Source: Yuukianura sp. NJ FZ-2021 | Taxonomy: Eukaryota | Assembly (NCBI GenBank): GCA_046563655.1 | Contig: CM102283.1 | Span: forward strand, 4,092,001 to 4,156,000 | Direction: 5' to 3' | Length of the DNA: 64,000 nt | In this document: positions 544 through 60,032 of the stretch, piece by piece | Layout: the number at the start of each line of letters is the position of its first letter | How positions within the stretch are numbered: position 1 is the first letter of the stretch | Notes under the pieces: model-generated | What the model was told of the DNA's origin: nothing | Seen by the model: only the letters and a program-made list of their open reading frames with translations | The model's database searches: none | Made by a program: the position numbers and the translations under genes

Positions 544-1148
544 TGTTACACATGCTTTAATTCAAGATTTATTTCCACGTTTTACTTTCACTCAGCCAAG
601 GTTCCACGTACACTTAGTCACTTAGTCGCTAAGGGACCCCAGCACTTGTATTTAGTTACTAAGCAGGAAGTGTAATAGCAAGGCCAGGTTAATTAAGACA
701 AAACCACAAGGCCAGGTAGATAATTCGATTAAGAATCAGCCTCACCGCAGGCCCTCTTTATCACCCAATTAGTGTTACCACAGCCTACGCCGGTAATGCG
801 GTTAGTGCTCCTGCGGTTGTTACTTTACCACTTGTTTACCACAAAAGGTACTATCTAACCACCTTCAATTAACGGATAATTAAGCACCTGGCATAAATAC
901 CCGGCAGTCACTGCCTAAAGTTAAGTCAGTACAGAAGTCGAAGAAGTAAGCGAAACTCGAATAAAGGAAGTACGACACTTAATAAGAACATAGGGACTTC
1001 ATTTTCACCTCCTCGCAACAATGGACTGACTGGCATGGAACCTCGGCCGCCCGGAAGGGGTCTCTGGGGCCCTTGACCCCACGGGGCAAACAGCGGTCTC
1101 CCCCGTGGGCCCTTCCTGAAACGGCGAACGCCTATTTCCGGCGTTACA
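544..1148 (+). repeat. 5' LTR
   Basis: TG..CA termini; about 5 substitutions versus the 3' LTR by manual comparison; TATA-like CATAAATA (892-899) about 30 nt before an Inr-like TCAGT (926-930); AATAAA at 960-965. Confidence 0.95.
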
Positions 1149-1150
1149 TT

Positions 1151-1167
1151 TGGTGCATTTGCCGAGA
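1151..1167 (+). promoter_or_regulatory. Primer-binding site, tRNA-Gly(GCC)-like
   Basis: TGGTGCATTTGCCGAGA begins 2 nt after the LTR and matches the reverse complement of the metazoan tRNA-Gly(GCC) 3' end (TGGTGCATYGGCCGGGA) with about 2 mismatches. Confidence 0.75.
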
Positions 1168-1566
1168 TATGCGGCAGTCAGGAATGCCAGGAAGAGGAGG
1201 TCACACCAATCCTTGGACTACGTCGGACCGTCCCCAGTCAGGTTCGCTATTCAGAAAATAAATTACCTTATATTTGAGTGTTGGAATTGGGAACAGTAAC
1301 GTAGTTAATAATATAAAGAACAATAACGTTGTAAGGACAATAACGGTTGGAATTTAACGTAAGACATAGTAGTAAGGGACTCCTGTACCTCCACACTGAA
1401 AATAGAGCAGGTCGAGCTGATTCCTACGAAGCTACCTTCCACGGAAGTAACGGAGACCTAGTGCTATCCCCCCCTGGTGACCAAGTACCCAAATGCATCG
1501 AACAGGTACAATAGAGAAGGTGACCCTCGAAGAGGTGAAAGTCCTCTATTGTTACCACACACGCTC

Positions 1567-2148
1567 CCCAACTAGAAACGAAACTTAAATTCATGTTAAT
1601 TTAACGTTGGAATTGTGAAAAATCAGTGATGTTGTAAATTATAACCGGACTCTGTATTTACAACATAATTTCAACTATTAATTTAGAAGTTAAAATAACG
1701 TTGGGGTGATGTGTTTTTATAACAAGTTTACAACGCATCATTCTACAACTGTTACCAATTTTGCGAAAATAACCTAAATTTAACGTCGTTTTAACTTGTG
1801 GTGCTGTAGTAGGAGGCGCAACGTTATTTTCACCTCTTTTTCACATCGCTCCCGCTCTTCTCCTTAACCGGCATGACTGCTAGAAAAGGATAGTGAGACT
1901 CCAACAATGTGAGTTTGTGGAAGTGGTGCAGAGCATAGGAGTGAGGAAGAGACGGGAAGAGAAGGTGGGAGTGCAAAGCTCCACACGGGAGTTATTTTTT
2001 TTCACTCTCGCAACAAAAATGCAACGTTATGTTTTTCCACACTCTCAACATTAATTTCACGTGGAAAGCGCGGCCACAAATCACTTTAGCGCAACGTTAC
2101 GTGGTAACAGAAATAAAACGTTGTTTTAACTTTCGATTTCTAGTTGGG
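1567..2148. mobile_element. CMC/EnSpm-type MITE nested in the LTR element
   Basis: Imperfect ~24-bp TIRs CCCAACTAGAAACGAAACTTAAA / TTTTAACTTTCGATTTCTAGTTGGG; 2-bp TSD TC (1565-1566, 2149-2150); many subterminal CAACGTT/AACGTTG motifs. Confidence 0.8.
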
Positions 2149-3057
2149 TCTGCTTACGGTTAAAGGTCACCTCATAGGGCAGTGGCTCTAGCCAAAGGTC
2201 AGAGGTTACTGTGGTAGCTATCGGTTCGATTTGTACACTTTTGCCAGCATTATTGTTAACAAACAGTAGGAAGAACAAGTGCTAGGATTTTATATGCTTA
2301 AACCTCTATGGCACTTAAAGAGCATACGGACATGCCGTATAACGTACGATCACGCGTTTCGTTCACGTATTTCCACTTAACTGATTTGCAGTCACTATTT
2401 GCCAGTTGTAAGCTATGCTTAGGTCCAAAAAAATTTTACGACTCACGATTCACAAATGTGATCTGACAATTTGATCAGGTGCTCATTGAAAGGATGAGTG
2501 TGAACTTAGCTTAAGTTAGTCGAAGATTTGGAAATTTTGATGCTAGTGAAACCATTGTTGTCAGAAGTAGATACTATGTGTTGTTGGACTTTCATTTTCC
2601 GGGGTTGCAGTAGACCTCAGTTAGTTTAATTCTGACAGTACAAAACATTCCCGAGTGTGAGTATGATAGGCGTCTAGTCTATTTTCAACTTTGGACTTTA
2701 TGGAGGTAAGTTATTGACTCCTCGAAATTCGAAACCCTTGTTTGTATTTTAGCTATTCTAACTCAGGGTGAACACACGTTCAATTGTCTCTTAGAAATCA
2801 TCCACAGTTTTGAAAATTTTGCATAGATTTGGAGAAAATGTTTGCTAGTGAATCAGCAGTTGCAGAAGTTACGGATATTTAATTTTTTTTTGTTAGACAA
2901 ATGAAATCGATTTTGGTTTGAATAGAAAAACGTGTGCTGAAATGTCAAAGGGCAAAAGGACATCTACCTTTTAAAGAAAGTATTTAACGAAAGGCCTGTA
3001 ATTCACTTAGGCAAGTCGAGTCACGTTTATTAAATTCGTTTAGCGTGTTAGATCAGA

Positions 3058-3420
3058 CTATGTTTCAGAGTCGCTTGAAATTAGGATAGTCTCGATAACG
3101 TTGGTAGTCGGTGTCGGCAATATTCCTTCACCTTCGTCTGCAATGTCAGAAAGGGCGATGGTCCGCTCCTCTTCTATCCATCGGTGAACGTTGACGGTCC
3201 CTGCCACAACGCCATTAATTCTCAGGAAGTCTTCAAGGCTCTGGTTATGGATTAAAGTACACAACCTCCGTCGCCTATCGTCCACCGACGTCCACGGTCG
3301 GTTTCCCGCGAACAAGACGCGCTCAGTTTGGAAAGCGCACATATGGCGCCGCACTTCCAATTTGATAAGGTTAACGAGGGCAGCCATTTCCAACGTGATT
3401 GGATTTCCCGCCTTATGCAT
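3058..3420 (-). CDS. Hypothetical antisense ORF (120 aa) inside the LTR element, unknown function
   Basis: Open frame with an acidic C-terminus (ILISSDSET); minus-strand AATAAA at 3026-3031, just past the stop. No recognisable domain. Confidence 0.3.
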   Translation of the reverse strand: MHKAGNPITLEMAALVNLIKLEVRRHMCAFQTERVLFAGNRPWTSVDDRRRRLCTLIHNQSLEDFLRINGVVAGTVNVHRWIEEERTIALSDIADEGEGILPTPTTNVIETILISSDSET

Positions 3421-3863
3421 AAGGAGACTGGCAAACGCTGCCCAGTTCTGAGTGAAGAATGGTTTCGACCAACAAATGACTCAAGAAGAAGTCATCCTGG
3501 AACAATTAGATGAAGTGCAACGATTAGAGGAACTACATTTACATTTTCGGAATGAAGCTCTTCCATGATGAAGTTCTTCCACAATGAAGCTCGTGCGAGA
3601 TGAAGCTCTTCCAAGGTGAAGCATCCATAAGACCAAGGTTTCTATAGCAACCGCTGCTTCATAAGGTTAAGCAATAAGTCTTGTTTTCCAAAAATCTCGC
3701 TCCAAACTTTTTTTTCACCCAAGTTTCACCCAAGTTTGTTGATCACTTTTTGGGGATGAAAGAAATTAAAAGTTAGCATCAAATCAAATTAAAAGTTGAC
3801 AGTTAAAGTTAAGTTTACAGTTAAAGTTAAGTTTACAGTTCAAGTTAAGTCATTTAGTTTAAG

Positions 3864-6804
3864 ATGGTGCATTATTGCTCAGTTCCAGACTGTCTGAACA
3901 GTGACTACAAAGTGAAGATTGGTGAATGCAAGACTAAGTTGTTTCGAGTGCCAAAACCAGAAGCAATTCGTAAAAGTTGGGAAGCCAGTTGCTCTACCAA
4001 GTTCAACGACTCTTCAAGAGTATGTTCCCATCATTTCCCAAATCTACCGGAGAATGTCAAAAGGCTACCAAAGGGCCAAGTTCCAGTTCCTCTAGTCAAA
4101 CCAAGTAATTGCATTCGCACTCTAACACAATATCCCTATCAACTGTTAACTCATTATGATTTATTTCAGTTAATACGCAACCGATTCACGTTGGAAAAAA
4201 AAAGTTGTCGTTTCGAGAGAAATGGAAGAAATGTAAGAAGCACATCAAATTCCTTCGCCTCACTTACTCCGAAAAAGACAAGTCCAGACAACACCATCAC
4301 AAGAAAGTAATTCTGGGGTACCGGAAGTTGGTCCAAGCTAAGTCAGTCAGAATTACGGAACTGGAAAATTGTTTGAAAAAACTGACCCAGAAAATGGAAG
4401 CCCAAAACGATGTTCTCAACAAAGTGAGTTTCACGTCAGACGTCCCACTATTTAGTGTAATTTAATGCAATGTGTTGAATATGTTATATTTTCAGATAGT
4501 CACCCCATGTCAACTGGATATGCTACTGTCGTCAAAAATAAAAACTTGGTGGCCCGTAGAAGACATTTTGAAAGCTATGCGTTTAAGGGTTAAATCAAAA
4601 TCAGCTTATGAGTTTGTGAGAAATAACTGGAACATCCCACTTCCTTGCGTCAGAACTTTACAGAACTGGCTTCAAAATATCAGCATCCGCCCAGGAATTC
4701 TAAATGATCTGATTGTTTTCATAAAATCAAAGTTCACCGATGCCCCTCAATTGTCTAGGTTAGAACGTAACAAAATGTAAGCAGAAAATCATTCATAACT
4801 AAATCACTTGCAATTGTTCAACTATGTATTGTTGTGTCACATTTGACGAAATGAACTTGGACGGCAGTTACTGCTACGATACTTCTTTGGATCAAGTCCT
4901 TGGAGGTGCCAAGAATTTTATGGTAGTTTTTGCCAGAGGTATTTTTGCATCCTGGAAAATTCCAATCTTCATGGGGTACGACGTAAAGTTTCAGCGAGAT
5001 ACAATTGAAGAAATTATGTCAAAGTTACACGACGCTGGATTGATACCTTCCGCCATGACGTGCGATAATTCTGGGGCCAACAGAGGGATTTGGACAAGAT
5101 TGAATGTCAGTTTCACTAATACTTCTTTCCCACATCCCGTGACTGGACATCGTATTTATTGCATCTCTGATCCGGTACATCTTATCAAATTGCTCAGGAA
5201 TAACATCTTCGACTGGGGACTTACACTTCCTGATGGGTATCAAGTAACAAAGGGTGAGTTTAAGTTATTTCTGACATCGACGGTGGCGCCATCTAGCGGC
5301 CAAAGTCGGAACTACTGAGGTCCCGAGGGGTCGACGGTGGCGCCATCTAGCGGCCAAAGTCGGAACTACTGAGGTCCCGAGGGGTCGACGGTGGCGCCAT
5401 CTAACGGAATTTATATTTAAATGAAATTTTAATTGAAATATTCTTACGTTGCAGATCTATTTGAGGAATTGCTTAAACACGATCGTTCGGAGCTACGAAT
5501 TTGCCATAAGCTCACTAGACGCCATCTTGAAGTCCAGAATTCCGAAAGACAAAATGCCAGAATGGCTTTTCAGACCCTGTCAAATTCAGTTTCCCACGCT
5601 ATTGAGTTCTTGTTTCCCGCCAAGAAGTCGCAAAGTCAATTTATACGCTTGATTTCGGATGGTTTTGACCTTTTGAACTCCAGGATTAGAGAAGAAAAGA
5701 ATCCAGCGAAGCAGTGCTACGGAGTCCACCTCGAAGCGCAGAATCAAACCTTGGATAAGCTGTACCAGGTACAAATTACAAAGCAAATTTTCAATTTTTA
5801 ACGCTTACATTATTTAAAACAGTTAAATTTTTAGATGGTTTCAAAGATGAAGGTTAACCACCCAAGACTGAAATCCTTACTACCCTTCCAGAAGGGAATT
5901 CTGATGACGATTACTTCCGTGAAAAATCTGTTTCAAGATTTGGTTACATCCCAAGGAGTAAGGTACATGGCCATCAATAGGTTGAATCAAGATGTGGCAG
6001 AAAATGCTTTTTGCATTATGAGAGGAATCGGAGGCTTCAAAGTCATCATGACGGCTGTTGACGCAAAATATCGTCTGAGAACTCTGGCTTTGATCTGGCT
6101 TTTGTCAATGGAAACGGATGACAAAGAGCTCGCTCGATTGTGCGACGTTTTGCAGGAACTGATCGAGGATGATACCGTCAAAGTGAGTTACATGAATTAA
6201 AATTTCGATTCCGCACTTTTGTTAAAAATTACACTTTTGTTTCCTCAGATTAACACTGATTATTGCGCCAACTTTGACCCTCCATCTACATCCAGAAAAA
6301 GAAAACGGTCACGATCTGATGAATGTGAGAATTCTGGTCTGGAGTACGTCGCCGGCTACATTTTGAGAAATTTCAAGGACACGAATCCTGACTTGGTCTT
6401 GTTGGATGAGAACCGATTGCCACAAAGTTGGTGTCAGAGGCTCTCTCGCGGTGGCATCACTGTTCCTTCCGAACGAATGATGTCCCTCATGGAATTGTGG
6501 GAATCGTATTTCGAAAAGTAAGTTCAGCGTTTTCCAATATTATAATTTTTTTTCTAAAAGATAAATATATTTCAGGGTGCATGGAGGACATGTATGTAAG
6601 GATCCTGGCGTCATAAGTCGACTGGAGTCAATGATTGTTCACGATTTTCCAACTATCGACGCTGGTGTCGTGAAACGATATGCAAGGGTCAGGACATTTC
6701 TACGATTGAGACACTTGAACCAGAAGCTTCATCTCCTGAAAGGTCGTATTCGTAACTTGGGAAAGGGGAACCAATTTGCATTGTGCGGTGATCCAGTAGC
6801 ATAG
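3864..6804 (+). CDS. P-element/THAP9-like transposase, 8 exons, ~781 aa
   Basis: Predicted exons 3864-4104, 4170-4423, 4496-4758, 4826-5253, 5455-5768, 5835-6182, 6249-6517, 6576-6804, all phase-compatible. THAP C2CH finger (CSVPDC..P..W..CSHHF..VP) and catalytic-type motifs TFDEM, TCDNSG, SDPVHLIKLLRNN, NQDVAENAF. The intron-3 acceptor reads AT, not AG. Confidence 0.9.
5277..5407. repeat. 54-bp tandem repeat (x2.4) in transposase intron 4, each unit carrying a CTCF-like motif
   Basis: Units start at 5277, 5331 and 5385; each contains TGGCGCCATCTAGCGGCCA (reverse complement TGGCCGCTAGATGGCGCCA); the third copy is truncated/diverged. Confidence 0.85.
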
Positions 6805-8723
6805 CTAAAAGTTTGCAGCACATTGTCTCTACATTTCTCAGAATTAAAAAAATGAAAAATAAAAAAAAGGAAAAAAAGTGAATAAAAAAATTCGGATAAA
6901 AAATTCCCAAGGAAACGAAAGCCGCCGTGATGTCCTTTCATTTTTGCAATTTTGGGAGGAAAAATATAAAAACCGAGGTATTGCTTAACCTTATGAAGCA
7001 AGAACTATTCCGTTGCTATAGAAACCTTGCATAAGACGAAGCTTCTACAGATGAAGCCCTTACAGATGAAGCTTCCACAGATGAAGCCTTTACAGATGTA
7101 GCTGCCACAGATGAAGCCCTTACAGATGAAGCTTCCACAGATGACGCCCTTGCAGATGCAGCTTCTACAGATGAAGCCCTTACAAACGAAGCTTCCCCAA
7201 GATGAAGCCCTTCCAAGATGAAGTCTTTGCAAGATGAAGCTTCCACGAGATGAAGCCCGTACCAGATGAAACTTCCACATGATGAAGTTTTTGCAAGATG
7301 AAGCTTCCGCAAGATGAAGCCCTTAATAGATGACGCTTCCACAAGATGAAGCCCTTACCAGATGAAGCTTCCGCAAGATGAAGCTTCCACAAGATGAAGC
7401 CCTTACCGGATGAAGCTTTCATTAAATGAAGCTTCCACGTGATGAAACTTTCTTAAGATGAAGATTGTCCGAAATGAAGAATTTCCGAAATGCAGATTTT
7501 ACCTAATGAAGATTTTACGGAAAGAAGATTTTCCGAAATGAAGATTTTACCGGAAGAGGATTTTCCGAAACGAAGATTTTACAAAAAGCAGCTTACGAGG
7601 GGAAGATTTTACGAAGTGAAGACTTGACGAGACGAAGAGTTTATGAGAATTTGTCGATAAGACAACGCAAGTATCGGCCTAACATGAATCGCTTGGACAT
7701 GAGGGATGGGACCGAAAACAGAAATATCCTGTGAAAGGACGGGCCGGGAGAATTGGAACTCCTAGTAACAATGTATTCATTGACCGGGCTGTAGTCTAAA
7801 TCCCAAAGAGGATGACGTTATGTCCTACAGCTACTCATCAAATACCAAATTAGGAAAAGGTAAAACAAAAGGAGGTAAAGGTTAGTAATAATGAAACTCA
7901 CACTGCTACTGGTGGGGTGGACCCACGAAAGTTATGGTACCAAAGGCGCGCAATAACGGTGTAATCGGATCCGACAGTACTGTAGCGCATGCGCAAATCG
8001 TTCAGCACAGACAGACATACGGCCTGGGTTAACTGAGAATTCTCTCTGATATCAGTGCTTCAGCAAAAGGGGCCAGCCGAGCCTCATGGTGCTTTGCAAC
8101 GTCTGCTTATGCTTTATGTATTTGTCTTACTAATCTAACTTCTGATCTCGAGTGGAAAATTGTGACACCAATGTCAAATATTGGTTAAATTGTTACTTAA
8201 AATCAGCTAAGAAATCATTACCTACGTAAAGTAGTTCAGATCACATGTTTAAGTTTATCACACGAATCTCCGAACGCATTTTTTTTTTGATAAGATAAGA
8301 AATTACTTAAAATTACTTAGACGCAAACTAATGTAATTAGCACTGTAGCTTAAGCTCCAATGAGCGTGGTCATCCATGTGGCCAAGTCATAAACTCTCAG
8401 ACGACTCTGTTCTAATTCGCACCCACCGAAGCTGCTCCGGGAGTAGCAGCGATTTAAGTTGGGGAAGGCCAGGCGTCGCCAGAAGTCTTTTAACGTGACC
8501 TGCGTCACCACCTCCAACCTCTAAGGACGAAAATTACGACAGAAACCGGAGAAACTACGAGAAGAAAACACGAAGGGAGTAAATTCTGAACCTTGGGGTC
8601 AACGGTCAAACTAGACGACCCCGTACACATGCTTCGCTCTCATGATCAGAGGCAACCCGGAAGAAAAATTGATGCTGTCCCGTCACCTCAACGAGTGATG
8701 TTCCAATTAAGGACCACCGAGAT

Positions 8724-8895
8724 ATCAGCACCGCAGATTATTTAATTCAGCACTGCCGCAGCCAGCGCCGGTAATGTGGTTTTTGGCGCCGAAATTGCTA
8801 ATCACCTACCTTCAATTAACGCCCACAGACGAGCAATTAAGAGTTCAGGTTAAATAACGAGCAGCAGAGAATTGGAGAGTCAGTCAGTGGAAGTC
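8724..8895 (+). promoter_or_regulatory. Internal diverged copy of the LTR promoter upstream of the cargo ORF
   Basis: Collinear blocks shared with LTR 735-939: ATCAGC..CACCGCAG, CGCCGGTAATG.GGTT, ACCTTCAATTAACG, AATTAAG, TAAATA, AGTCAGT, GAAGTC. Confidence 0.7.
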
Positions 8896-9723
8896 AACAA
8901 GCCAAAGCACTCCCCACACAACCAAACAAACGTCAACGTCTAATTCACCTTCGAAGGAACTACAGTAGACATGGAGACGCTTCACAAGTCAACTCAACTC
9001 AACTACGCGCAAACGCAGGTTAGAAACTTACGGACGGTTTGCGACTCGTGCGACCAATTCGCACGGGAGTTCCTTTCCTAGACGACGCACGAATGGGCAA
9101 CACACTTTGGACAGCAGCCTGGGAACTGCCGCCGTTTAACATGCACACCTTAACAACGCAGGACGAGATCACGGCTCACTTCACGACAGCGATGGAAATC
9201 TCTCCCGTTGCCTTCACTTGTTTTGAATGGCCACATTCCTACGTAGGCGCGAATTGCAGTATTGTCATCATATCCAAGAAAAACGCTTTTGCCGTGGACC
9301 CCAGGAATCCGAATTCTCACGACCCTCTGCGACAACTGTTCGGAACGCATCGAGTAATCAAGCTTTGCTACAGCGGTCAGCAGCAGCAACAATGGATCGA
9401 ACGCGACGATTGTACCCCGAAGCATACTAGATGTTGAAACAATTCGCCTTCACTGGGACAACCTACCGGATCACGCAACCCCACACGTTATCCGAACCGA
9501 GTTCGGGTCAACAGTAACCATACCCGCCGGCTTCCCCCGCCAATTCCTAGATCAAGACCTAGAGCGCATGATGGACTCGACAGCAACAATCGTTCTTTTC
9601 TGGCGGGACATCACCATGCACCTTCAGGACACCCTCGACAACAGCGTAGTAAATATTCGTTACACCCTACAAGAGATTTTCGACAGCACCCACGAGCAAA
9701 CAGCAGAACAGTACCAGTTAAAA

Positions 9724-11031
9724 CCCAGTTAGCACAGTTTCGTCCCTTGAACATCCCGGGGATTTCAACCGAATGTCCCAATCAAATCCCAGGGATGTTC
9801 AGAAACTCCGTATAACCTCCTGTAAACATCCGAAATGCCCACTTTTCAAACTCCCTGGGAGCACCTCTTTTTAGCTCCATGGGAGTTCTGATTCGGACGT
9901 ACCATGGAGCTAACCCACGTGTACCCACGTGTACATACTTGACGCGCGAAAAATAAACAGATAAAAGTTTACGAGTTTTTAACTAACCCAATTTTATTTT
10001 ATTGTAAAGCAATGAATTACGTGAAACTGAAGGTTAAACTGCTAAATATGACTAAAAACACTGGAAATTGCCTTTTGCATCTCCGCGTCATCCATCTTCA
10101 CCCTCATGTTAAGTTTGGCGCAATCTGAAATTAAAGAAAACATAAGCCATGGACTACTAAACCGCCAAAATCTGAATGTTGAAATTAAAATCAACGGAAT
10201 AATCGATAGGTCTTGTTAAAAACTTACAGAGTAGCAATTTAAGGCCGCTTTCCTTTCCTCCCTTGAAGGCTAAACGGCATAAGCAGGTTATCGTTCCAAA
10301 GTGCTGTCGTTAACCTTTTTACAGTTTCGTAGCAGCTGTTTCCTCCTAATTCCAGTAACTTAGTTATCTATGAAATGTTTTTACGATAGTTTTTAACATT
10401 GTATATGAAACTTGAAACGGACTTACCGCTGATTGTCTGAATTCCTCTTCTGTTGACAATCGGTTTACGAGGCATTTCAAATTGAACAATGGTCAGACTG
10501 GAAACCACTAAAGAAACGATACGAAATTAACTGAAACGTTAACTGAAATTGCTATGTAAACACGTAATGACAAAGTACTTTAACTTAATCGTTTCAAAAA
10601 TTTTGAAATTCTTACCGAACTTTGTATCGGGCCAGTTCCTGTAGACGTTGCTTCTCTTTGCTAACTTGTGCAGCGACAATGATTTCCGGACGAGATAGAT
10701 TTGACTAAATCAGTTTAATTTTGTGTACAAAGTTAAAATTCCTTCCGACTTTAGACAGATTGGCAGAAAATAATGAGCAAATGATGATGCAATGTGCTCG
10801 GATCATCTGGAAGCTGAAAATTGAAACGCGCAGGGACAAAAGTCACATGACTTGGGTTTTTCCCGTGGGGATCGTCCCTGGGACATTCGTGGGAAACTCA
10901 ACATTTTCTGAGGACATGTCCTTAATGTGGAAATACCAGGGAGGTCCGGTGGAGAGAATCCACGGCTCACGTCCCGAAGAGTATTTTGGGACACTAATCG
11001 GACGTTCCCAGGAGGTTATGTGCATATAGGG
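9724..11031 (-). mobile_element. CMC/EnSpm-type deletion-derivative transposon carrying a spliced DUF4806-like gene remnant
   Basis: Termini CCCAGTTAGCAC / GTGCATATAGGG; 2-bp TSD AA (9722-9723, 11032-11033); subterminal GTCCC/GGGAC and ACATCC motifs. Precise removal restores the flanking reading frame. Confidence 0.75.
10040..10660 (-). pseudogene. DUF4806-like accessory gene remnant of the CMC element
   Basis: GT-AG bounded exons. 10367-10228 translates ITKLLELGGNSCYETVKRLTTALWNDNLLMPFSLQGRKGKRP*; the upstream exon reads FPV*PLFNLKCLVNRLSTEEEFRQSA. In-frame stops are present. Resemblance to DUF4806 is from memory. Confidence 0.55.
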
Positions 11032-11306
11032 AACACTTCTTCTCGGACACCGACCCAACAAATGCCAGAGACGCCCGGGTTCGAGCCAGTATTATTTATG
11101 TTGCGCGCGTCCTCGACCTCCCAACAAACCTCTTCCAGCAAGACTACGAGACGTGGAAAGAGGGCACAGACCGTGAGTTCATCAAAGGACTGCGCCAGCG
11201 CATCACCACGCTACCAAAACCCGAAGGCATGGACGAAGCCCGTGCCCGCCAGCTCGTACCAGAATTACTCACTTGGTTCGGGGCGGACTTCCCAGCAAAC
11301 ATGCGC

Positions 11307-11958
11307 CAGTGGTGGGAACCCGCGCGGATAACCTGCAGCTCATTGCAGATACCTGCAAACCTGCGCAGATAGGTACAGGTGATCAAGCTAAGAAGTTGGA
11401 TTTTGCAGGTGCAGGTCCCACAGGTACAAGGTCCCACAGGTACCATGTTGTACAAGGGGAAAACTGCGAAAATCAACCGAAAAACAGTATTCTGGCACCA
11501 AAAGCACATATTTTTTGTTTCGGATTAAAACATTTGTATCAGTTTGTACAAAACGTTAAAGGTTTGCCGTTGAGACGGTCAAAATGGCACATCCGCTTCA
11601 ACTAGCAATAAGTGTTTTGAATGATAAAAAAATCTTAAGTGGGTCATCTCCAAGATTTGAGCTATTTTATGACCACTAACAGTCTTCATAAATAGGTAGT
11701 ATGATTTAGCGGCGCTGCGTACATTGCTAACCGCAGTAATTAGTATCAATTAGAATTAGTTCAAAACTAAAATACACCAAACCGGCTACGTTAACTGGAG
11801 TTAAATCTATTGTTCTCTGGGCGGGTAACCTGCATCATCTGCAGGTCCCACAGGTTTTACAAACCCGCTAGACCTGCAGGTTGCAGGTTGGACAGGTTAC
11901 ACAAGGTGCAGGTGCAGGTGCCACAGGTTTAAAAAATTCGCGCAGGTTCCCACCACTG
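11307..11958. mobile_element. hAT-type MITE, family A copy 1 (652 bp)
   Basis: TIR CAGTGGTGGGAACC / GGTTCCCACCACTG; 8-bp TSD ACATGCGC (11299-11306, 11959-11966); subterminal ACCTGC/GCAGGT motifs; near-identical inverted copy at 16636-17313. Confidence 0.92.
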
Positions 11959-12198
11959 ACATGCGCCCAGCAAGTCGGCTCGCCGTGGGACCGGGCAAGC
12001 ATACACCACGGTGGACACCGTACTCTATTCCGCTGGCACCGCCCCAGTCTGAACTCCCTGTACTAGGAAGTCTACCTCCGCCGGACATACTCCTCCCGAT
12101 GCTTGTGGCCAAGGTGCAAGAGTTAGAAGCCCGCCTCCGACAATTTGAACCACAGAATCTGTAGCACACATGCTCCGCCCCCTACGCATTGTTTTGTC

Positions 12199-12228
12199 GG
12201 GACGACAAAAAGAATAGGCGTTGGAGAG
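12199..12228 (+). promoter_or_regulatory. Polypurine tract
   Basis: GGGACGACAAAAAGAATAGGCGTTGGAGAG immediately precedes the TG of the 3' LTR. Confidence 0.7.
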
Positions 12229-12833
12229 TGTTACACCTGCTTTAATTCAAGATTTATTTCCACGTTTTACTTTCACTCAGCCAAGGTTCCACGTACACTT
12301 AGTCACTTAGTCGCTAAGGGACCCCAGCACTTGTATTTAGTTACTAAGCAGGAAGTGTAATAGCAAGGCCAGGTTAATTAAGACAAAACCACAAGGCCAG
12401 GTAGATAATTCGATTAAGAATCAGCCTCACCGCAGGCCCTCTTTATCACCCAATTAGTGTTACCACAGCCTACGCCGGTAATGCGGTTAGTGCTCCTGCG
12501 GTTGTTACTTTACCACTTGTTTACCACAAAAGGTACTATCTATCCACCTTCAATTAACGGATAATTAAGCACCTGGTATAAATACCCGGCAGTCACTGCC
12601 TAAAGTTAAGTCAGTACAGAAGTCGAAGAAGTAAGCGAAACTCGAATAAAGGAAGTACGACACTTAATAAGAACATAGGGACTTCATTTTCACCTCCTCG
12701 CAACAATGGACTGACTGCCATGGAACCTCGGCCGCCCGGAAGGGGTCTCTGGGGCCCTTGACCCCACGGGGCAAACATCGGTCTCCCCCGTGGGCCCTTC
12801 CTGAAACGGCGAACGCCTATTTCCGGCGTTACA
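12229..12833 (+). repeat. 3' LTR
   Basis: 605-bp direct repeat of 544-1148, followed by TSD ACCT. Confidence 0.95.
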
Positions 12834-13487
12834 ACCTCCACCACCACTTACCTCAATTCCACCACCACCACCACCGAATTTCTGCGTTGTTGGCCTTTCA
12901 GATGATTAGTTGGTCTCATGTAGTGTTGTTAGGTTGATTCTCGTTGATGTAAGGAAGAGGTGCATAGAAGATCATAGTAATACTAGTTACATCAAACAAC
13001 GTTGTACCAATATGGTCAATTATGTTGTCACTCCAGCCGTAATACCCGTAGAGGCGTAGACGTTTAATCTAGTACTTGGTGGTACCAGGTTGATATTGTA
13101 GTGTGAGCACTGGTACAACAGAATGATGCTAAAACTTATTAACATTGTTGAGGTTACAATGGAGTGGGATAATTCTGTCGTTCAACCAAGTATGTTGTGT
13201 ATGAATTTGCGGTTTTGCGAATAACTTAGGTTACTAACTTCCCTACCTTTCGCTTTCACTACCGTACTTATACCTGGTACGTATTATTTATTGATTTCAG
13301 GGAAGATAAGTGTTTCTAAGCGTTTTCCTGTGTTCTTTCAATTGAGGTCGACTCCGATAATCGTAGTCCGATTATTTATAAAATATTTAAAGTTTTTATT
13401 TAGTAAGACCGGACAACCAAACTTTCGTGGTGCCTTTCTGAAACCAGGATAAGGTTCAATATTTCAATAAGCGTAAGGTTCAATAAA

Positions 13488-15382: not shown

Positions 15383-18300
15383 TTATTGATTGTTGTTGAG
15401 ACTCACGGATGAGAGGGACAACGGGTGTGGTTTGGGGCTCACGCGAAGGTTGCGTCCAGACGTGTGGTTCGTTGTTGGCCTCAACTCCAATCGAACGCTT
15501 CCAGGAACTCCCGAGTTGTCCAGGGCGTAGAAAACGTTTGCGTTTGCGGGGAACTTAAGTTCTTTATTAGCGAGAACTTGGACGAGTGAGAAGCGACGAG
15601 GTTCCTCTCCTTCGAAACCCAACTTTTCCAGCGCTTGGGCTATCACTTGCGGCGTGTGGTCCGAATTACTGACAATCATAGATTTGTACATTACATCTGA
15701 TTTGGCTGGTGATGAAACTTTCACAACGACTGATGTTTCCGGCGTGGGGGAGGTGAGTCCGGGTACGACTGGTGGGGCCTCTGAGTAACCCATGGAACTT
15801 TCGTTTGAACTCTGGATTGAACCCTAATAGAACATAAATACAATCACATAATAATATAATAATAATTGGCTTTCAAATTACAAATTACCTTTCGAGTGGG
15901 GGGAATTCCCAAAACGCTCTCCGTATTTTCCGACGATGAGTTTGAAGCAAAAGAGTCGCTCTTGCGATGTCCTTTTGGTGGAACCCGTTCAGTTTGAATT
16001 GCGACAGACAAGTCGTAAGCAGCCTTGTCATCCAACACTGTTAAAGAGTTGTACCACGACGTGAAGTAAGGATCCTCTTCTAGACGATATCCTTTGGCAG
16101 ATCCTTGTAGGAGCTTCAGCTGAGCTAACACTTCAAATTCCTTTTTTCGTTTGTCAAAGTTGATGAGTGTTCCGTGTACGTAGTCTGGGTATGCAGCGTC
16201 AATGAAAGTCAAATCAGTGAGGAATGTACCAAGATAAGGAATCGTCCCATTCGGAGAGTCGAATTCTGCCGTCGTGCCTCTCGTGCCATGACTTGAGCGT
16301 AGAACCCTTGATAGGAATCTTCTGTCCTTTGGACTCTTGGTGGGCGTAGGGAATTTGGCTGTTCCCTCGGCTTCCAGAAGACTCCGTTGTGCCATTCGGT
16401 TGTTGTCTTCGGAGAAGATTTGGGATAATTGTGAGTAAATGGTCAGGCGGTCCTTGGAGACGAGATGCCAGAGCTTGGAGAGGCGAAAGATTGGGTTTGA
16501 CTCCAGGCCTGCAATGATGGCTTTCAACGACGAAAAATTCTTGAGCTGCCGTAATTCCTGCAATTAATGCAATTTAACGTCATTCCTGCCCAACAACTAC
16601 AAGAAAAAAAAGCAGTGTTTTCCCGAAATCCCACCCAGTGGTGGGAACCTGCGCGAATTTTTTAAACCTGTGGCACCTGCACCTGCAGCTTGTGTAACCT
16701 GTCCAACCTGCAACCTGCAGGTCTAGCGGGTTTGTAAAACCTGTGGGACCTGCAGATGATGCAGGTTACCCGCCCAGAGAACAATAGATTTAACTCCAGT
16801 TAACGTAGCCGGTTTGGTGTATTTTAGTTTTGAACTAATTCTAATTGATACTAATTACTGCGGTTAGCAATGTACGCAGCGCCGCTAAATCATACTACCT
16901 ATTTATGAAGACTGTTAGTGGTCATAAAATAGCTCAAATCTTGGAGATGACCGACTTAAGATTTTTTTATCATTCAAAACACTTATTGCTAGTTGAAGCG
17001 GATGTGCCATTTTGACCGTCTCAACGGCAAACCTTTAACGTTTTGTACAAACTGATACAAATGTTTTAATCCGAAACAAAAAATATGTGCTTTTGGTGCC
17101 AGAATACTGTTTTTCGGTTGATTTTCGCAGTTTTCCCCTTGTACAACATGGTATTCCGCAGGTTTGCAGTTAACTGCAAACCTGCGGAGGCTGTACCTGT
17201 GGGACCTGCACCTGCAAAATCCAACTTCTTAGCTTGATCACCTGTACCTATCTGCGCAGGTTTGCAGGTATCTGCAATGAGCTGCAGGTTATCCGCGCGG
17301 GTTCCCACCGCTGATCCCACCTGAGCAATTCGAATCCATTTCTCGAGTGTTTTCGCCCTTTGTTGCAGAGGTAACGTCGGATCAACCAGAATCGTGGCCA
17401 CAACACGTCCGGAAAGTGCATTGAACTGCTCAACTGTTGCCGCTACAGAAGCACATCCGCACCTTCGCTTCCACAAGCCTCCCAAACATTCCCAAACACG
17501 CAAATTAAGAAATAGTTCCTAAAAAACATGGACTTGTGTTAAGACGAATTGTATATATGGTATGTTTTGCTTCAAAATGTGTCACCTTATCATAGTAGGT
17601 GAGCTGTTGTGCAAAATGTGATTCCGGTATGGCCAAGAGTGAGTACGTTCGAATGTTCTGCGGCGAGAAAGTACGTAGAGAGTGCAGACTGCTAGACTTC
17701 CTCATCTTGCGCCGTGATCTCAGTTTATATTGAATTTTTAGTGCCAGAGAAGTGAGTCCTTGATCTTGTGCAAATGGCAGGATGACTTTACGTAAACAGT
17801 GGTAACCATCCCCTCCGGATTCGAAATCTTCAGAATAAGAGTCGAGCCATGCATTGAGACAGTCCAGCATCACCCTATTATGATGAAATGCTCCGAGTAA
17901 GGTCAATGCTACTTTATAACAAAGAACAAACATGGGCTAATTAGGCTCAGCTACCTTGATTTGACTTACTTTCGTAGTGAGTCTTGACTTGAGTGCTTGT
18001 AGAGGTAGATGATTTCTTGTAGTACTTCAGTCGGAGTTGCAAAGGCACGATACGTAGCTAAGAACACGCTCAGATGCGTCGCCTACTCAAAAACAGTTTA
18101 TTTTTTTCTCAGTAGAATAACTTCATGTGACTGTATACACAACTTCAGTTACTTTCCCTCACCTGGACATCGCTGTCGTCGTTCGACATGGCTTCAACTA
18201 TTCGTCGAAGGGTTCCGGCTCTGAGCACTCGCACACGAACAGTTTCCCACATCAAATGAGCAATTTCTCCTTGGTCGGAGTCCACTTCATCAATGACGAC

Positions 18301-38354: not shown

Positions 38355-38590
38355 TTTAGTCTTCTGGAGACGCATGTCTACGACATGCTGAAGAAGACTA
38401 TTGATACGACTTTGTCTGTCCGTCTGTCACATTTTTTAGGAACCTTTGCACTTAAACTTAAGCCCTATCGCAGTCGGGGGGTTATCTACGGCTCAAGTGT
38501 TTTCTTTACCTCTACATTGCGCTCAAAGTGTTAGATTAACAACGTAGAAGTGGGCGGCCACCTTACGCACACGCAGTGTTGTCGTTTCCC
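38355..38590 (+). mobile_element. DINE-1/HINE-like repeat, second copy
   Basis: TAGTCTTC...GAAGACTA short inverted pair, then GTCTGTCCGTCTGTC; homologous to 140-380 in opposite orientation. Confidence 0.55.
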
Positions 38591-55554: not shown

Positions 55555-55990
55555 AAGAGAGTAACCTAAATATTACGTAACCTACGGCCCAAGGTAACTC
55601 AGTAGAGTAACCTAAGGTAACCCAGTAGGGTAGCCTACGGCCTAAGGTAACTCAGTAGAGTAACCTAAGGTAACCCAGTAGGGTAACCTACGGCCTAAGG
55701 TAACTCAGTAGAGTAACCTAAGGTAACCCAGTAGGGTAACCTACGGCCTAGGGTAACTCAGTAGAGTAACCCAAGGTAACCCAGTAGGGTAACCTACGGC
55801 CTAGGGTAACTCAGTAGAGTAACCTAAGGTAACCCAGTAGGGTAACCTAAGGTAACCCAGTAGGGTAACCTACGGTCGAAGGTAACCCAGTAGGGTAACC
55901 TACTGTCAAAGGTAACCCAGTAGGGTAACCTACAGTCAAAGGTAACTCAGTAGGGTAACCTAAGAGGTAACTCAGTAGGGTAACCTAAAG
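55555..55990 (+). repeat. 53-bp/30-bp tandem repeat in the LINE 5' UTR
   Basis: Unit GGTAACTCAGTAGAGTAACCTAAGGTAACCCAGTAGGGTAACCTACGGCCTAA starts at 55593, 55646, 55699, 55752 and 55805, followed by shorter ~30-bp units. Confidence 0.9.
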
Positions 55991-56000
55991 TAAAAAGCTG

Positions 56001-56762
56001 ATGCCAATCTCACGTTCTCCCGTATCACAGAACATGTCGCAAACCACCCTACCTTTTCTCCCACAAAGTAAGGGTAGTAAGCGAGCTGCTGATTCGGAAC
56101 CAAACGCTGGAATCGAGCCAAGTTCAAAACGATCAAATCACTCAAATGACGATTTATTGGAGGCAATGACAAAAATGTTTGCAAACTTGGAAACAAGAAT
56201 TGAAACAAAAATCGACACGAGATGCGATTCCATCGAACTCAAACTTGAGAAATACCAGGAACAAATTGAAGAGCTACAAACCAAAACGGAGCAACAACAA
56301 AACGAAATCGATCAACTGAAAAAAATGAACTCCCGCCTGACAGACGAATTAAGACGAAATAACATTCTGATCCACGGACTTTCGGAAACTACAAATGAAA
56401 ACACGATGAACATCACCAACGACTTTTTTAACCACTACAATGTTCCGGTCAACGTAGAAGATGCATTTAGAATTGGAAAACTGAACCCATCGTCCGATAA
56501 GCCCCGCCCAATTAAAGTGCGAATCTCGACATTTGCCCAACGCATGCGAGCTCTACAGCTTCGGAAGACGTTCATACAAAACAAAGAAATTTACTCCATT
56601 ACCGAAGACCTCACGGTGGAAACCAGACTTGAAAGACAAAAAAATCGCGAATTAAGACAACGGGCCTCTGAATCCCGAACTCGAGCGCCAGGATCATCAA
56701 ATCCTACTATTCCCAGAACCTTTGCTTCTGCCACTCGAAGCTCATTCCCTGCCCCAAAATGA
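56001..56762 (+). CDS. LINE ORF1p (coiled coil + RRM/CTD-like), 253 aa
   Basis: Heptad-rich segment followed by LRRNNILIHGLSE, AFRIGK, PRPIKVRI and ITEDLT motifs typical of L1/L2/CR1-type ORF1. Confidence 0.88.
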   Translation: MPISRSPVSQNMSQTTLPFLPQSKGSKRAADSEPNAGIEPSSKRSNHSNDDLLEAMTKMFANLETRIETKIDTRCDSIELKLEKYQEQIEELQTKTEQQQNEIDQLKKMNSRLTDELRRNNILIHGLSETTNENTMNITNDFFNHYNVPVNVEDAFRIGKLNPSSDKPRPIKVRISTFAQRMRALQLRKTFIQNKEIYSITEDLTVETRLERQKNRELRQRASESRTRAPGSSNPTIPRTFASATRSSFPAPK

Positions 56763-56837
56763 CGACTCGGCCGCCCTATCAATAGCCTACCAAACAAAAC
56801 AAGTACAGCATCCTGCAGCAAAACATTTTTAAACAAC

Positions 56838-59800
56838 ATGACAATCTTCTATTTGAATGCAAGAAGTGTAAATAACCTGGGACCGACTTTCTGGAACGAA
56901 TTCTTGACACTTCAACCTTCTCTTTTCTGCCTATCAGAATCAATGCAATGGGAAAATTATAAAAACCTCAGACTACAGCAACAATATACAGTTCATCAAA
57001 TTTTAGCCAAAAAACATCACAGGGGGCGTCCATATGGAGGCTTCATATTTGGCTGGCACAACTCACTAGACTCACAAATCACTTTACTAGAGACGAGGGA
57101 GCACTCCATACTACTAACCGTTCGCAACCATCAATCACAAGTTCTCTTGCTGTTCACCTACATTCCTCCGGGCAAATTCAACCAAAAACTAGTGACCGAA
57201 ACACTTGAAACTGTGAAATTCACGAACAAACCGGTATTGCTAATGGGAGACCTAAATTCAAGAACCGGAGAAAGAAACACCACTCCATTGTATAAAAGGA
57301 AAAGCAAGGACAAGTTGATAAACGGAAACGGGAGAAACCTGCTATCAGTTGCTGCCGACTGTAACCTTACAATTTGTAATGGAGCAATAACAGGAGATGA
57401 ACAAGGGGAAATAACAATGGTAAACCCAGCAAACGCAGGGTGCAGTGTCGTAGATCTTGTGCTTACATCCCAGAACTGGCGAGGCAACGTTAATGATTTG
57501 AAAATACTAGACTGGCATCATTCCGACCATTTCCCTTTGCTCCTCTCACTCCAAAAAACGGTCAACCTACCGCAGAACGAGGAAGGCCAGACCCAAGAAA
57601 AAATAACCATCCCCTCAGAAAAAATGGAAAAACACGCCTTTTATCAACATCTTGAGGCCTCACTGAATTATGAAATCGAGGATGCAAACCAAGCTAGTCT
57701 TCACCTACAGGAAAAAATCTTTGAAACCGCTAAGGTAACAGGTAACCACAAGAAGTCAAAGCCAAAACCAGAAAGACCAAAGCCGAAGTGGTTTGACGCT
57801 GAGTTGAACTCCTTGAAATGGAGGAAAAACAATGCCATCCGCAAGTTGAGAAGATGCAGCGAAGAGAATAAAATGTCATGTGCACAACGCTACATAGTAG
57901 CCCAGAAACTATACAAGCAACAACTAGTTCACAAGAAATCTCTGTTCCTGTCAAATTTTGTCTCGCATCTCCACTCATCCAAAGACCCGGCAAACTTCTG
58001 GAAGGCCGTAAAATACTTCACAGCTCAACCAACCTCACAAGACAAAATCCCGAAGGATACGTGGTTCCAACACTTCCAGGACCTCTTTAAAGCCCGTGAC
58101 GTTCCGAACCATCAACTAAATATCCTAAATACACCATTCGTAGAAAATGAAATACTAGATCGTGACGTAACAGCAATTGAGATAAGGATGGCAACAAAGT
58201 CGTTGAAGACACGAAAAGCAACAGGTCCTGACAGAATCCCGAATGAGTTATGGAAAGGGGCCACCCCAAACATTCTAATTTTCCTGGTTACTCTCTTCCA
58301 AAATATTCTACAGAACGGGATACTGCCACAGCATTGGTGTAATACTCGAATACTTCCATTACACAAAAAAGGACCTAAAGAGCAGCCGCAAAATTACCGT
58401 CCAATATCGCTGATGAATACGATACTAAAGCTGTTTACTAAAGTGCTGAACACGAGAATCAACAACTGGATAAATGCCAACAAAAAAATTTCAGACTTTC
58501 AAGCTGGCTTCAGAAAATCTAGATCCTGTACTGACCACATATTCACATTAATGGCTATGATTCAATGCCAGATGTTGAAACAAAAAGAGTTATATGTCGC
58601 ATTCGTTGACTTGTCACAGGCTTTTGACACTCCAAACCACTCTCTACTCTGGGAGGTCCTAGGAAACATGGGTGTCTCAACAAAATTTCTAAAAGTATTC
58701 AAGTCCCTGTATGACAACGCCACTACTCAAATTAATACCAGCGAAGGACTCACCGACCCGATTAAAATAATGAAAGGGGTGCTCCAAGGTGAATCTGCCA
58801 GTCCCACCCTCTTCAATTTGTTCATTGAAGACCTAGTAAGCAGGTTTACCAATTCACTACTCAAAGGCTACACTCTGGGCTCCCGTATTATTCATGTTCT
58901 GCTCTACGCTGACGACCTTGTAATCACAGCACAGTCCAAGGAACTGCTCCAAGAGAAAATCAAAATCGCCTCCAACTTTTTCAAAGCCAGAGGTCTCCAT
59001 GTCAACCTTACAAAAACAAAGGTAGTACCATTCCGTCTTTCGGGAAGATTACGAAAGGATGACCTGTTCCTTTGGAATGGAACACTGATAGAAACAGTGG
59101 CAGAATACAAGTACCTCGGTGTGATCTTCCAATCTAACGGCACATTCCACAAAGCTGCAAGGAGTGCAGTTGAGAAAGGAATTTCAGCACAAGGAGCAGT
59201 CTTGGGTTTACTCAAGAAATCTGCTTACATTGACCTGTGGACGGTTAAGATGCTACTCAACTCACTTGTAACATCCACAACCTTATACAACTGTGAAACC
59301 TGGGGTTTACTACATTCTAACACCGTAGAAACGGTTCAACAAAACTACTACAAACGAGTTTTCCACTTCCACTCCAACAAAAGAGCCTGGCAACTGTTCA
59401 CAAAATTCCACTCAAAATCTTGCTCTGACCTCACAAAGAACGCATACCTACAACTAAGGAAAGTTACACTACTCCACCCTGATCAAAAATACAGTTGGTG
59501 CCTACAGCTTAGAGCCGCCCTTACCCAAATTGGGGAAGAGGACGCCTATGACGGGGGAAACTTACATGACATCAGAGCAAGAACAAAAATAATAATCAAG
59601 AAACTTGCGAACTTCTACCGGGATTCAGACAAGAGACGTGCATCGCTGTCTAGTTCCATACCACACTACTCTGCCCTTGAGGAAGATTTCCCGGCGAAGG
59701 AATTACTTTCCAAACGGTTCCCAGCCTACCTCACCAGAACAGTCATGCAGATCCGACTGAACATGAACCAGCTCTACCACAACCGAAAACGGCTTGATCT

Positions 59801-60032
59801 CGGCCAGTTCAAAGAAAAGTTCTGCAGTTTCTGTGGGGACCAACTGTCTTACTACCACGCTCTGTGGACTTGTCCACAGACTAACACACACCGGAACCAT
59901 TTGCACATCCCAGCGTACCAATGTCCAATTGTTTGGGTCAGTTCACATTCCACAGACTTCACATTTATCAAGAACCTCCAAATTCTAAATCAAAGAGTGC
60001 TGTCAATGTTCGAGCCTACCCTGGACCGATGA
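56838..60032 (+). CDS. LINE ORF2p: APE endonuclease + reverse transcriptase + C-terminal CCHC motif, 1064 aa
   Basis: YLNARS, LSES, YIPP, GDLNSR, VVDLV, SDHFPL (APE); KATGPDRIP, YRPISL, QAGFR, FVDLSQAFD, GVLQG, YADD, YKYLG (RT); CSFCG....YYHALWTC. Confidence 0.97.
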   Translation: MTIFYLNARSVNNLGPTFWNEFLTLQPSLFCLSESMQWENYKNLRLQQQYTVHQILAKKHHRGRPYGGFIFGWHNSLDSQITLLETREHSILLTVRNHQSQVLLLFTYIPPGKFNQKLVTETLETVKFTNKPVLLMGDLNSRTGERNTTPLYKRKSKDKLINGNGRNLLSVAADCNLTICNGAITGDEQGEITMVNPANAGCSVVDLVLTSQNWRGNVNDLKILDWHHSDHFPLLLSLQKTVNLPQNEEGQTQEKITIPSEKMEKHAFYQHLEASLNYEIEDANQASLHLQEKIFETAKVTGNHKKSKPKPERPKPKWFDAELNSLKWRKNNAIRKLRRCSEENKMSCAQRYIVAQKLYKQQLVHKKSLFLSNFVSHLHSSKDPANFWKAVKYFTAQPTSQDKIPKDTWFQHFQDLFKARDVPNHQLNILNTPFVENEILDRDVTAIEIRMATKSLKTRKATGPDRIPNELWKGATPNILIFLVTLFQNILQNGILPQHWCNTRILPLHKKGPKEQPQNYRPISLMNTILKLFTKVLNTRINNWINANKKISDFQAGFRKSRSCTDHIFTLMAMIQCQMLKQKELYVAFVDLSQAFDTPNHSLLWEVLGNMGVSTKFLKVFKSLYDNATTQINTSEGLTDPIKIMKGVLQGESASPTLFNLFIEDLVSRFTNSLLKGYTLGSRIIHVLLYADDLVITAQSKELLQEKIKIASNFFKARGLHVNLTKTKVVPFRLSGRLRKDDLFLWNGTLIETVAEYKYLGVIFQSNGTFHKAARSAVEKGISAQGAVLGLLKKSAYIDLWTVKMLLNSLVTSTTLYNCETWGLLHSNTVETVQQNYYKRVFHFHSNKRAWQLFTKFHSKSCSDLTKNAYLQLRKVTLLHPDQKYSWCLQLRAALTQIGEEDAYDGGNLHDIRARTKIIIKKLANFYRDSDKRRASLSSSIPHYSALEEDFPAKELLSKRFPAYLTRTVMQIRLNMNQLYHNRKRLDLGQFKEKFCSFCGDQLSYYHALWTCPQTNTHRNHLHIPAYQCPIVWVSSHSTDFTFIKNLQILNQRVLSMFEPTLDR

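Follow-up and report, generated by a model that had tools for sequence, protein, structure and literature searches.

Has a long terminal repeat (LTR) retrotransposon taken up an exonuclease gene and carried it, stripped of its catalytic residues, just ahead of its 3' LTR? This question is raised by a stretch of 64,000 nucleotides from Yuukianura sp. NJ FZ-2021 (assembly GCA_046563655.1, contig CM102283.1, positions 4,092,001 to 4,156,000 of the forward strand), here called the window, in whose numbering all coordinates are given. An original prediction had placed in it an LTR retrotransposon with a captured Rrp6/EXOSC10-like pseudo-nuclease gene. The window does hold an LTR element, and within it an open reading frame (ORF), interrupted at several points, whose N-terminal part resembles DEDD exonucleases and lacks the acidic residues of their ExoI and ExoII motifs. 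The reading that we favour, with a probability of about 0.6, is that of a dead, non-autonomous LTR retrotransposon copy bearing an accessory ORF, the N-terminal part of which is a DEDD exonuclease derivative without the ExoI and ExoII acids. The features on which the argument draws are as follows, in map order.

540–543, with a right copy at 12834–12837, no strand: target-site duplication ACCT, by direct reading
544–1148, +: 5' LTR of 605 bp, TGT...ACA, from a blastn self-match
1151–1167, +: primer-binding-site-like TGGTGCATTTGCCGAGA, starting TGG, 2 bases past the 5' LTR, by direct reading
3858–6521, +: nested P-element-type transposase remnant in several frames, from Pfam (THAP, Tnp_P_element, TNP-like RNaseH_N, TNP-like GBD, Tnp_P_element_C)
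7700–8914, +: high-copy stretch derived from transposable elements (TEs), from word depth and from contigs of runs X2 and X3 with a loose end at 8914
8850–8888, +: putative internal promoter, TATA-like TTAAATAA (8850–8857) and initiator-like TCAGTCAGT (8880–8888), which aligns to TATAAATA...TCAGT of the LTR
8915–12191, +: low-copy ORF unit, about 1.3 kb without the two insertions, with high-copy TE sequence on both sides, from lowest depth and loose ends at 8914 and 12192
8971–9081, +: first ATG, opening a 36-codon frame that stops at TAG, the third frame relative to frames A and B, by sequence reading
9024–9407, +: frame A (128 codons), resembling the N-terminal half of a DEDD exonuclease domain of RNase D/Rrp6 type, with no ExoI or ExoII acids, from Atlas features and an RNase D profile
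9408, +: one-base frame change between A and B, by sequence reading
9409–9723, +: frame B (105 codons), proposed to hold the ExoIII half, at chance in profile tests
9724–11033, no strand: inserted non-autonomous repeat element, from its high depth and from the boundary of its family at 9723/9724; its excision restores the frame
11034–11306, +: ORF piece C, 91 codons, predicted to be helical from a structure model
11307–11966, no strand: hAT-type miniature inverted-repeat transposable element (MITE; 11307–11958) with the second copy of the 8-bp duplication ACATGCGC, from inverted ends, the duplication and a second copy in the window
11967–12164, +: ORF piece D, 65 codons and a stop, proline-rich and then a short amphipathic helix, with no transmembrane segment
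12192–12228, +: polypurine-tract region, common to other members of the LTR family, from direct reading and contig loose ends at 12192
12229–12833, +: 3' LTR with TATAAATA (12577–12584), TCAGT (12611–12615) and AATAAA (12645–12650), from reading and the self-match

The retrotransposon and its interrupted reading frame

The two 605-bp direct repeats at 544–1148 and 12229–12833 are 99.17% identical, with 5 substitutions and no gap, and each of them starts with TGT and closes with ACA. ACCT stands on both outer flanks and is not shared by the inner ones. The LTR pair, the ACCT duplication, the primer-binding-like site and the purine tract together identify a single LTR-retrotransposon insertion of 12.3 kb (544–12833). 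Two unrelated solo LTRs are ruled out, given that ACCT is common to the outer flanks only and that the inner flanks hold the primer-binding-like site and the purine tract. A tRNA scan of the 64-kb window for the source of the primer found no tRNA gene, and TGGTGCATTTGCCGAGA had no tRNA match.

When the pieces 9409–9723, 11034–11306 and 11967–12164 (315, 273 and 198 nt) are joined, they give 261 codons and a stop in a single frame. The same joined DNA contains 10 and 4 stops in the other forward frames, and 12, 7 and 8 in the reverse frames. At the given base composition, 261 open codons have an analytic p of 9.4e-5 per frame, and an open forward frame turned up in 2 of 5000 mononucleotide shuffles. 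The GC content by codon position (0.64/0.42/0.58) is coding-like. The stop codon, at 12162–12164, lies 64 nt ahead of the 3' LTR and directly before the polypurine tract. Upstream, 9024–9407 holds 128 open codons, which a one-base frame shift at about 9408 separates from the 261-codon frame; the open stretches of the two frames, A and B, overlap at 9358–9437. The 36-codon frame that opens at 8971 may contain the true start, severed by a second frame change near 9075, or else it may be a short upstream ORF, with the main frame starting at the ATG at 9093.

The second of the two insertions fits a hAT-type MITE: it has inverted ends (CAGTGGTGGGAACC...) and is flanked by the 8-bp duplication ACATGCGC at 11299–11306 and 11959–11966. 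Since the limits of the MITE are set by its own structure, the in-frame junction left by its removal is a genuine test of the reading frame, which the frame passed. A second, inverted copy of this MITE, with 95.6% identity, is found at 16636–17313, in or beside a minus-strand RalGDS-like host gene (RasGEF 15847–16563, RA 15386–15823).

For copies of these sequences outside the window, public contigs of four sequencing runs (X1 to X4) from two studies, none of them on record as RNA, were placed on 7700–12900 at 80% likeness. The word depth of these contigs is not a copy number, and depths differ between runs of one sample. The first insertion, 9724–11033, belongs to a repeat family, as indicated by its high depth and by a contig loose end exactly at 9723/9724. 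No terminal inverted repeat was found at its exact ends; its repeats of the TCCCNGGGA type are subterminal, and an inverted pair of 22 nt lies 88 and 14 nt in from the ends. In one X3 contig, the right end of another copy of this family directly precedes the family's left end, and hence its members also occur head to tail or nested. Among the matches listed, no contig joint skips 9724–11033 or 11307–11966, and no empty-site copy was seen.

In this copy, then, two DNA-transposon insertions and either one or two shifts of frame have ruined the gene. In its outline the original prediction is borne out: the 261-codon stop-free frame ending 64 nt before the 3' LTR was reproduced by a scripted join, the frameshift near 9408 does link it to a frame of about 128 codons, the ORF lies inside an LTR element, immediately ahead of its polypurine tract, and this copy is broken, as had been stated. 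Both insertions had been assigned a target-site duplication, which was recovered for the hAT MITE; for 9724–11033, both this duplication and the label 'CMC' are putative. The predicted 'env position' is unproven, this copy having no pol to define such a position. An envelope glycoprotein is ruled out by the want of a hydrophobic anchor, the maximum 19-residue hydropathy of the ORF read-through being 1.41, and there is one N-x-S/T sequon. A LINE-type processed retrocopy is ruled out as well, since neither poly-A nor a flanking duplication is present at 8915/12191.

Exonuclease likeness of the upstream frame

The likeness to DEDD exonucleases rests on two methods without shared machinery, language-model features and a profile hidden Markov model (HMM). 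Comparison of the ESM Atlas language-model features of 9024–9434 gave a first match of 0.92 with a recognition of 2782, and 25 of the 30 matches were to the 3'-5' exonuclease family PF01612; a score of 0.9 is also reached by 4–10 of 100 shuffled proteins, a third of which get ten one-family matches. An HMM built from 30 RNase D-type proteins of Pseudomonadota, including that of E. coli, scored frame A at 10.4 bits (E 1.2e-5), aligning residues 39–120 to HMM positions 12–94. The alignment spans the part between the helix preceding ExoI and the ExoII region, both included, with the order and the spacing right.

The controls of the profile match were clean. None of 3000 shuffles reached the score of frame A (maximum 4.7), and the reversed sequence scored -3.3. 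Among the 272 ORFs of the window (stop-to-stop, at least 60 codons), frame A came first with 10.3 bits (E 0.0035), the runner-up having 3.7. In a range-restricted alignment it scored 33.6 against a shuffle maximum of 18.6, with 0 of 300 shuffles reaching it. The guess of the earlier reader, the language-model features and the profile results converge on one family, which makes chance an unlikely explanation. Taken together, a true DEDD ancestry of 9024–9407 appears probable from the sequence comparisons.

DEDD nucleases bind two metal ions by their acidic residues. The HMM and hhalign alignments put a gap or T opposite the D of ExoI (D-x-E) and C opposite the E, and the local sequence, FTCFEW, contains a single acidic residue. 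The D of ExoII faces a Q inside a run of five Q (YSGQQQQQW), with no acidic residue within four positions. For ExoIII (Y-x3-D), hhalign and an HMM of small exonucleases both align ERMMDSTATIVLFW to it, with a one-residue difference in register. Given that the acids of ExoI and ExoII are absent, a protein of this sequence could not bind two metal ions in the manner of DEDD nucleases, and, to judge by these positions, the intact protein could not hydrolyse nucleic acid. The replacement of catalytic positions claimed beforehand is therefore supported for ExoI and ExoII, and is not for ExoIII, the block being at chance.

According to the favoured reading, the accessory ORF, of about 390 codons, would be the only coding capacity of the element's own, directly upstream of the polypurine tract and the 3' LTR. 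The first 120 or so residues of its main frame would derive from the 3'-5' exonuclease domain of an RNase D/Rrp6-type DEDD protein, and would have lost the acids of ExoI (D, E) and ExoII (D). The intact protein would then act only by binding RNA or DNA 3' ends or partner proteins. The ORF may have been transcribed as a unit of its own from an LTR-like promoter and polyadenylated in the 3' LTR. It could have been acquired in the course of reverse transcription, through template switching or recombination, with either a divergent cellular gene or another retroelement as the source.

Copies, counter-evidence and rival explanations

Word depth is high over 7700–8917, the first insertion and the LTR, and lowest over the ORF stretch. 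The upstream high-copy family leaves the window sequence at 8914, and ten LTR-family contigs (4 from X1, 2 from X2 and 4 from X4) hold other sequence upstream of 12192. This depth profile and these loose ends place the ORF in a low-copy unit, 8915–12191, between high-copy TE families. An exact contig in X1 covers 8877–9789, and X2 has the same with one differing letter, so that the upstream repeat, the ORF and the first insertion follow each other unbranched. X3, which is labelled as another organism, holds 9337–9753 with two differences. From the matching contigs in X2 and X3 it follows that the broken state is shared beyond the source sample. The sole diverged relative of the ORF that was seen is a 2014-nt contig of X1, with about 81% identity over 8947–9406 (88 other letters and one gap); the exact contig has a word depth of 215 and this one of 11, and the alignment of the latter ends where the frame changes in the window. 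With ten family contigs holding other sequence and one diverged relative, the earlier claim that the gene was retained in a retrotransposon family is weakened.

The last 215 nt or so of the upstream stretch (about 8700–8914) are collinear with the U3/TATA/initiator part of the LTR, at about two-thirds identity, and the initiator-like TCAGTCAGT lies about 30 nt before the 8914/8915 breakpoint. From this degenerate LTR copy directly upstream we infer a dedicated internal promoter of the ORF. One X1 contig and one X4 contig join 8779 to 12526, indicating that LTR variants with the internal version of the box exist elsewhere.

A number of results weigh against the favoured reading. Neither an ORF nor a Pfam domain for gag or pol (protease, reverse transcriptase, RNase H, integrase) was found in 1149–12228. 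The element copy is therefore non-autonomous, and the membership of the ORF in the element's own gene set is unproven. Most LTR-family contigs are without the ORF. The Atlas matches share 150–157 features with the query, against 170 typical of the same family, which signifies distant relatives or chance. An HMM of 20 small bacterial PF01612 exonucleases did not recognise frame A (-3.1 bits, E 0.26), so that the profile signal is confined to the RNase D-type branch, and it is faint. Pfam returned nothing at E ≤ 10 for any of the four ORF pieces, and phmmer against PDB chain sequences returned no exonuclease. Against 1.84e9 protein representatives, phmmer with 9024–9434 gave three matches at E ≤ 0.001, which we judged spurious: they are internally repetitive proteins, one of them ankyrin-like by eye. 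Word-indexed protein searches with 9358–9729 and 9024–9434 found none. The single-sequence AlphaFold 2 model of 9024–9434 is unusable, with a predicted local distance difference test score (pLDDT) of 37.7; its order of helices and strands is compatible with an RNase H-like fold but unreliable. For the parts behind frame A, the scores against the RNase D profile were reached by 1530 (frame B), 249 (piece C, HRDC1 columns) and 948 (piece D) of 3000 shuffles, and in the range-restricted test by 130 (frame B) and 51 (piece C) of 300. Frames B, C and D being at chance, the ORF may be chimeric, with an exonuclease origin for 9024–9407 alone.

Two further searches, one for relatives of frame A among viral contigs and metagenome contigs, the other a word-indexed search with E. 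coli RNase D aimed at Rrp6, gave no relative and a single junk high-GC protein, respectively.

Of the rival explanations, the one that survives best, and which we still regard as unlikely, is that of a passenger: a cellular gene or pseudogene, evolving fast and with its DEDD domain degenerate, that would have been transduced once by read-through and template switching, useless to the element and present as a single copy. It would account for the ORF unit having the lowest depth of 7700–12900, for the exact contig 8877–9789 running unbranched across the junction of ORF and insertion, for the other sequence upstream of 12192 in the ten family contigs, and for the fusion of the unit about 30 nt past an LTR-like initiator, as in retroviral transduction. 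The gene is, moreover, already decayed though the LTRs differ at just 5 of 605 positions. Yet no cellular parent appeared in any protein search, the diverged X1 relative means that the unit is not strictly unique, and the depths from which a single copy would be read are contig depths.

The full form of the original prediction, in which an intronless Rrp6/EXOSC10 retrocopy with exonuclease and HRDC parts was kept by the family as a dead RNA-binding decoy against RNA surveillance, is improbable. It draws on the absence of the catalytic acids, on a likeness that is specific to the RNase D/Rrp6-type profile and unseen with the small bacterial exonucleases, and on an hhalign alignment in which the read-through, joined by X, stays collinear for 263 columns, passing from the exonuclease domain to HRDC1. 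We presume that the blocks HSY..G..C and W..RD, in their letters and in their distances, are closer to Rrp6 than to RNase D. The hhalign match, however, has P 0.015 and a probability of 3%, and frames B and C on their own give P 0.6. ExoIII and HRDC are at chance in the profile tests; Atlas gave no usable match for frame B, and Pfam no HRDC in the ORF pieces. The 91-residue AlphaFold 2 model of piece C is helical (pLDDT 78.7), and fold searches with it matched generic helical bundles only, with no HRDC listed. PMC2NT, the Rrp47-binding domain, had no Pfam match, and the 40–60 or so residues ahead of the exonuclease-like block are too short for one; a C-terminal exosome-binding tail is not present in the ORF. 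No EXOSC10 was found at E ≤ 0.001 in the phmmer search of 9024–9434 against the 1.84e9 proteins, which makes a recent capture of canonical host EXOSC10 unlikely. That most LTR-family members are without the ORF also speaks against its having been kept.

What is left of the Rrp6-like nuclease gene is accordingly its N-terminal half, of RNase D/Rrp6-type DEDD likeness. Of the motif blocks that had been listed as collinear, the helix, ExoI and ExoII regions stand in the profile alignment, and ExoIII, the linker and HRDC appear only in the non-significant hhalign result. The HRDC and exonuclease profiles of Pfam gave nothing for this gene, and the first half of the domain was recovered by the purpose-built RNase D HMM and the Atlas features. 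The helical middle of the ORF, its proline-rich tail and its short C-terminal helix, as predicted, belong to no demonstrable family.

It is just as doubtful that the ORF has no exonuclease ancestry at all and encodes an orphan retroelement protein, for instance a divergent gag-like or accessory one, with the DEDD signals arising by chance. The standard searches (Pfam, PDB, phmmer) are all negative, an Atlas score of 0.9 is within reach of shuffled proteins, and the profile match is of just 10.4 bits. Against this stand the agreement of two unrelated methods with an independent guess on one family and the clean controls (0/3000, 0/300, top of 272). Furthermore, no CCHC or other gag feature was found in the read-through, which has 3 Cys in 392 positions.

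A long shot, finally, is a transposon-encoded anti-silencing pseudo-nuclease of a retrovirus-like element lineage in a non-rotifer animal, probably an arthropod, that is, a dead RNase D/Rrp6-fold protein made from its own LTR-derived promoter, which would bind the 3' ends of element transcripts or exosome/PIWI-interacting RNA (piRNA) cofactors and so shield the element from nuclear RNA surveillance.

The only enzyme that Pfam finds in the interior of the element is the nested P-element-type transposase. Its transposon occupies 3500–7700, has the transposase split over at least six frames, and is bracketed by tandem arrays of 15/16-nt, ATGAAG-like units at 3536–3650 and 7019–7640. A perfect 54-bp tandem duplication (5277–5384) lies between the RNase H-like and GTP-binding-domain pieces of the transposase. 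Outside this transposon with its arrays and outside the ORF studied here, the interior frames in 1149–3500 and 7650–8970 do not exceed 140 codons; a 140-codon open frame beside the transposon (3058–3480, minus strand) had no Pfam match. Elsewhere in the window, 55989–60032 is an apparently intact non-LTR retrotransposon, with an ORF1 of 257 codons followed at once by an ORF2 of 1089 codons. The ORF2 carries an endonuclease/exonuclease/phosphatase domain and a reverse transcriptase, and the ORF1 has weak sub-threshold Pfam matches only and is coiled-coil-like by eye. An inverted pair of 233-bp repeats, with 83% identity, is found at 145–377 and 38357–38585.

Comparison with known systems

Where an LTR retrotransposon carries an extra gene, it offers a rare clue to how the element deals with its host. 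The weight of the present case is limited, given that the sole copy seen is dead and without gag or pol, and that one half of the domain architecture proposed for it cannot be demonstrated. Pseudo-enzymes of this kind escape Pfam and very large sequence searches, and hypothesis-driven profiles are needed to find them.

Among cellular proteins, the ORF resembles Rrp6/EXOSC10 and bacterial RNase D in the order of its parts, from the helix before ExoI to ExoII and, in the non-significant hhalign alignment, on into HRDC1. It differs from them in having no DEDD-Y acids, PMC2NT or exosome-binding tail, in that ExoIII and HRDC are not significant, and in that nothing matches it in Pfam, PDB or the 1.84e9 proteins. 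Gene capture by LTR retrotransposons, or transduction of the retroviral type, is known. As in such transductions, an intronless foreign ORF follows shortly after an LTR-type initiator and behind it come the carrier's polypurine tract and 3' LTR; unlike in those transductions, there is no known donor gene, and a further full LTR lies 8 kb upstream in the carrier.

The closest parallel is found in bdelloid rotifers. According to Rodriguez, Kenefick & Arkhipova 2017 (PMC5408684), the LTR retrotransposons Juno and Vesta, together with Athena/Terminon elements, carry an ORF3 with 'strong homology', by HHpred, to RNase D-like DEDDy exonucleases, and the catalytic residues (DEED) are kept. The same authors state that the bdelloid ORF3s are closer to each other than to cellular RNase D, Mut-7, WRN and Rrp6, which points to exchange between retroelements, and propose acquisition by template switching of the reverse transcriptase (PMC5408684). 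Like the bdelloid ORF3 as described there, the ORF in the window is an extra ORF of the RNase D/Rrp6 class in the 3' part of an LTR element, with no transmembrane or envelope features. Unlike it, the match is faint and confined to the N-terminal half, and the acids of ExoI and ExoII are absent. The animal group is another one and the copy has no gag or pol, the comparison being with the bdelloid ORFs by description and not by sequence.

Maelstrom and EXD1, inactive DEDD derivatives that bind RNA, are cited there as functional analogies (PMC5408684), and Egalitarian is described as a catalytically inactive, RNA-binding animal protein of DEDD fold. The likeness of EXD1, Maelstrom and Egalitarian to the present ORF, an exonuclease fold that binds RNA without catalysis, is one of concept alone, and they are host genes, not TE-borne ones. 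A DEDDy-class domain has also been taken up by a mobile element in the Dada DNA transposons, whose transposases hold a DEDDy exonuclease domain according to Kojima & Jurka 2013 (PMC3706591). There it is embedded in a DDE transposase, all four catalytic residues are kept, and the carrier is a DNA transposon, not a retroelement (PMC3706591).

Among the papers listed, a survey of titles and abstract openings on DEDDy domains and retrotransposons brought up no further report of such an ORF in an LTR element. Among retroelements, the literature found places exonuclease-type extra ORFs in bdelloid rotifers only, where they are apparently catalytically competent. A second independent instance from a different animal group, lacking the acids, would if true suggest that retroelements have recruited the DEDD fold repeatedly, and that the useful property can lie in binding rather than cutting, as it does in the piRNA-pathway proteins EXD1 and Maelstrom. 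A DEDDy-type extra ORF in LTR elements is thus already known; what differs here is the host group, the lost acids, the far greater divergence and the form in which the ORF is met, as a single, decayed, low-copy and non-autonomous example.

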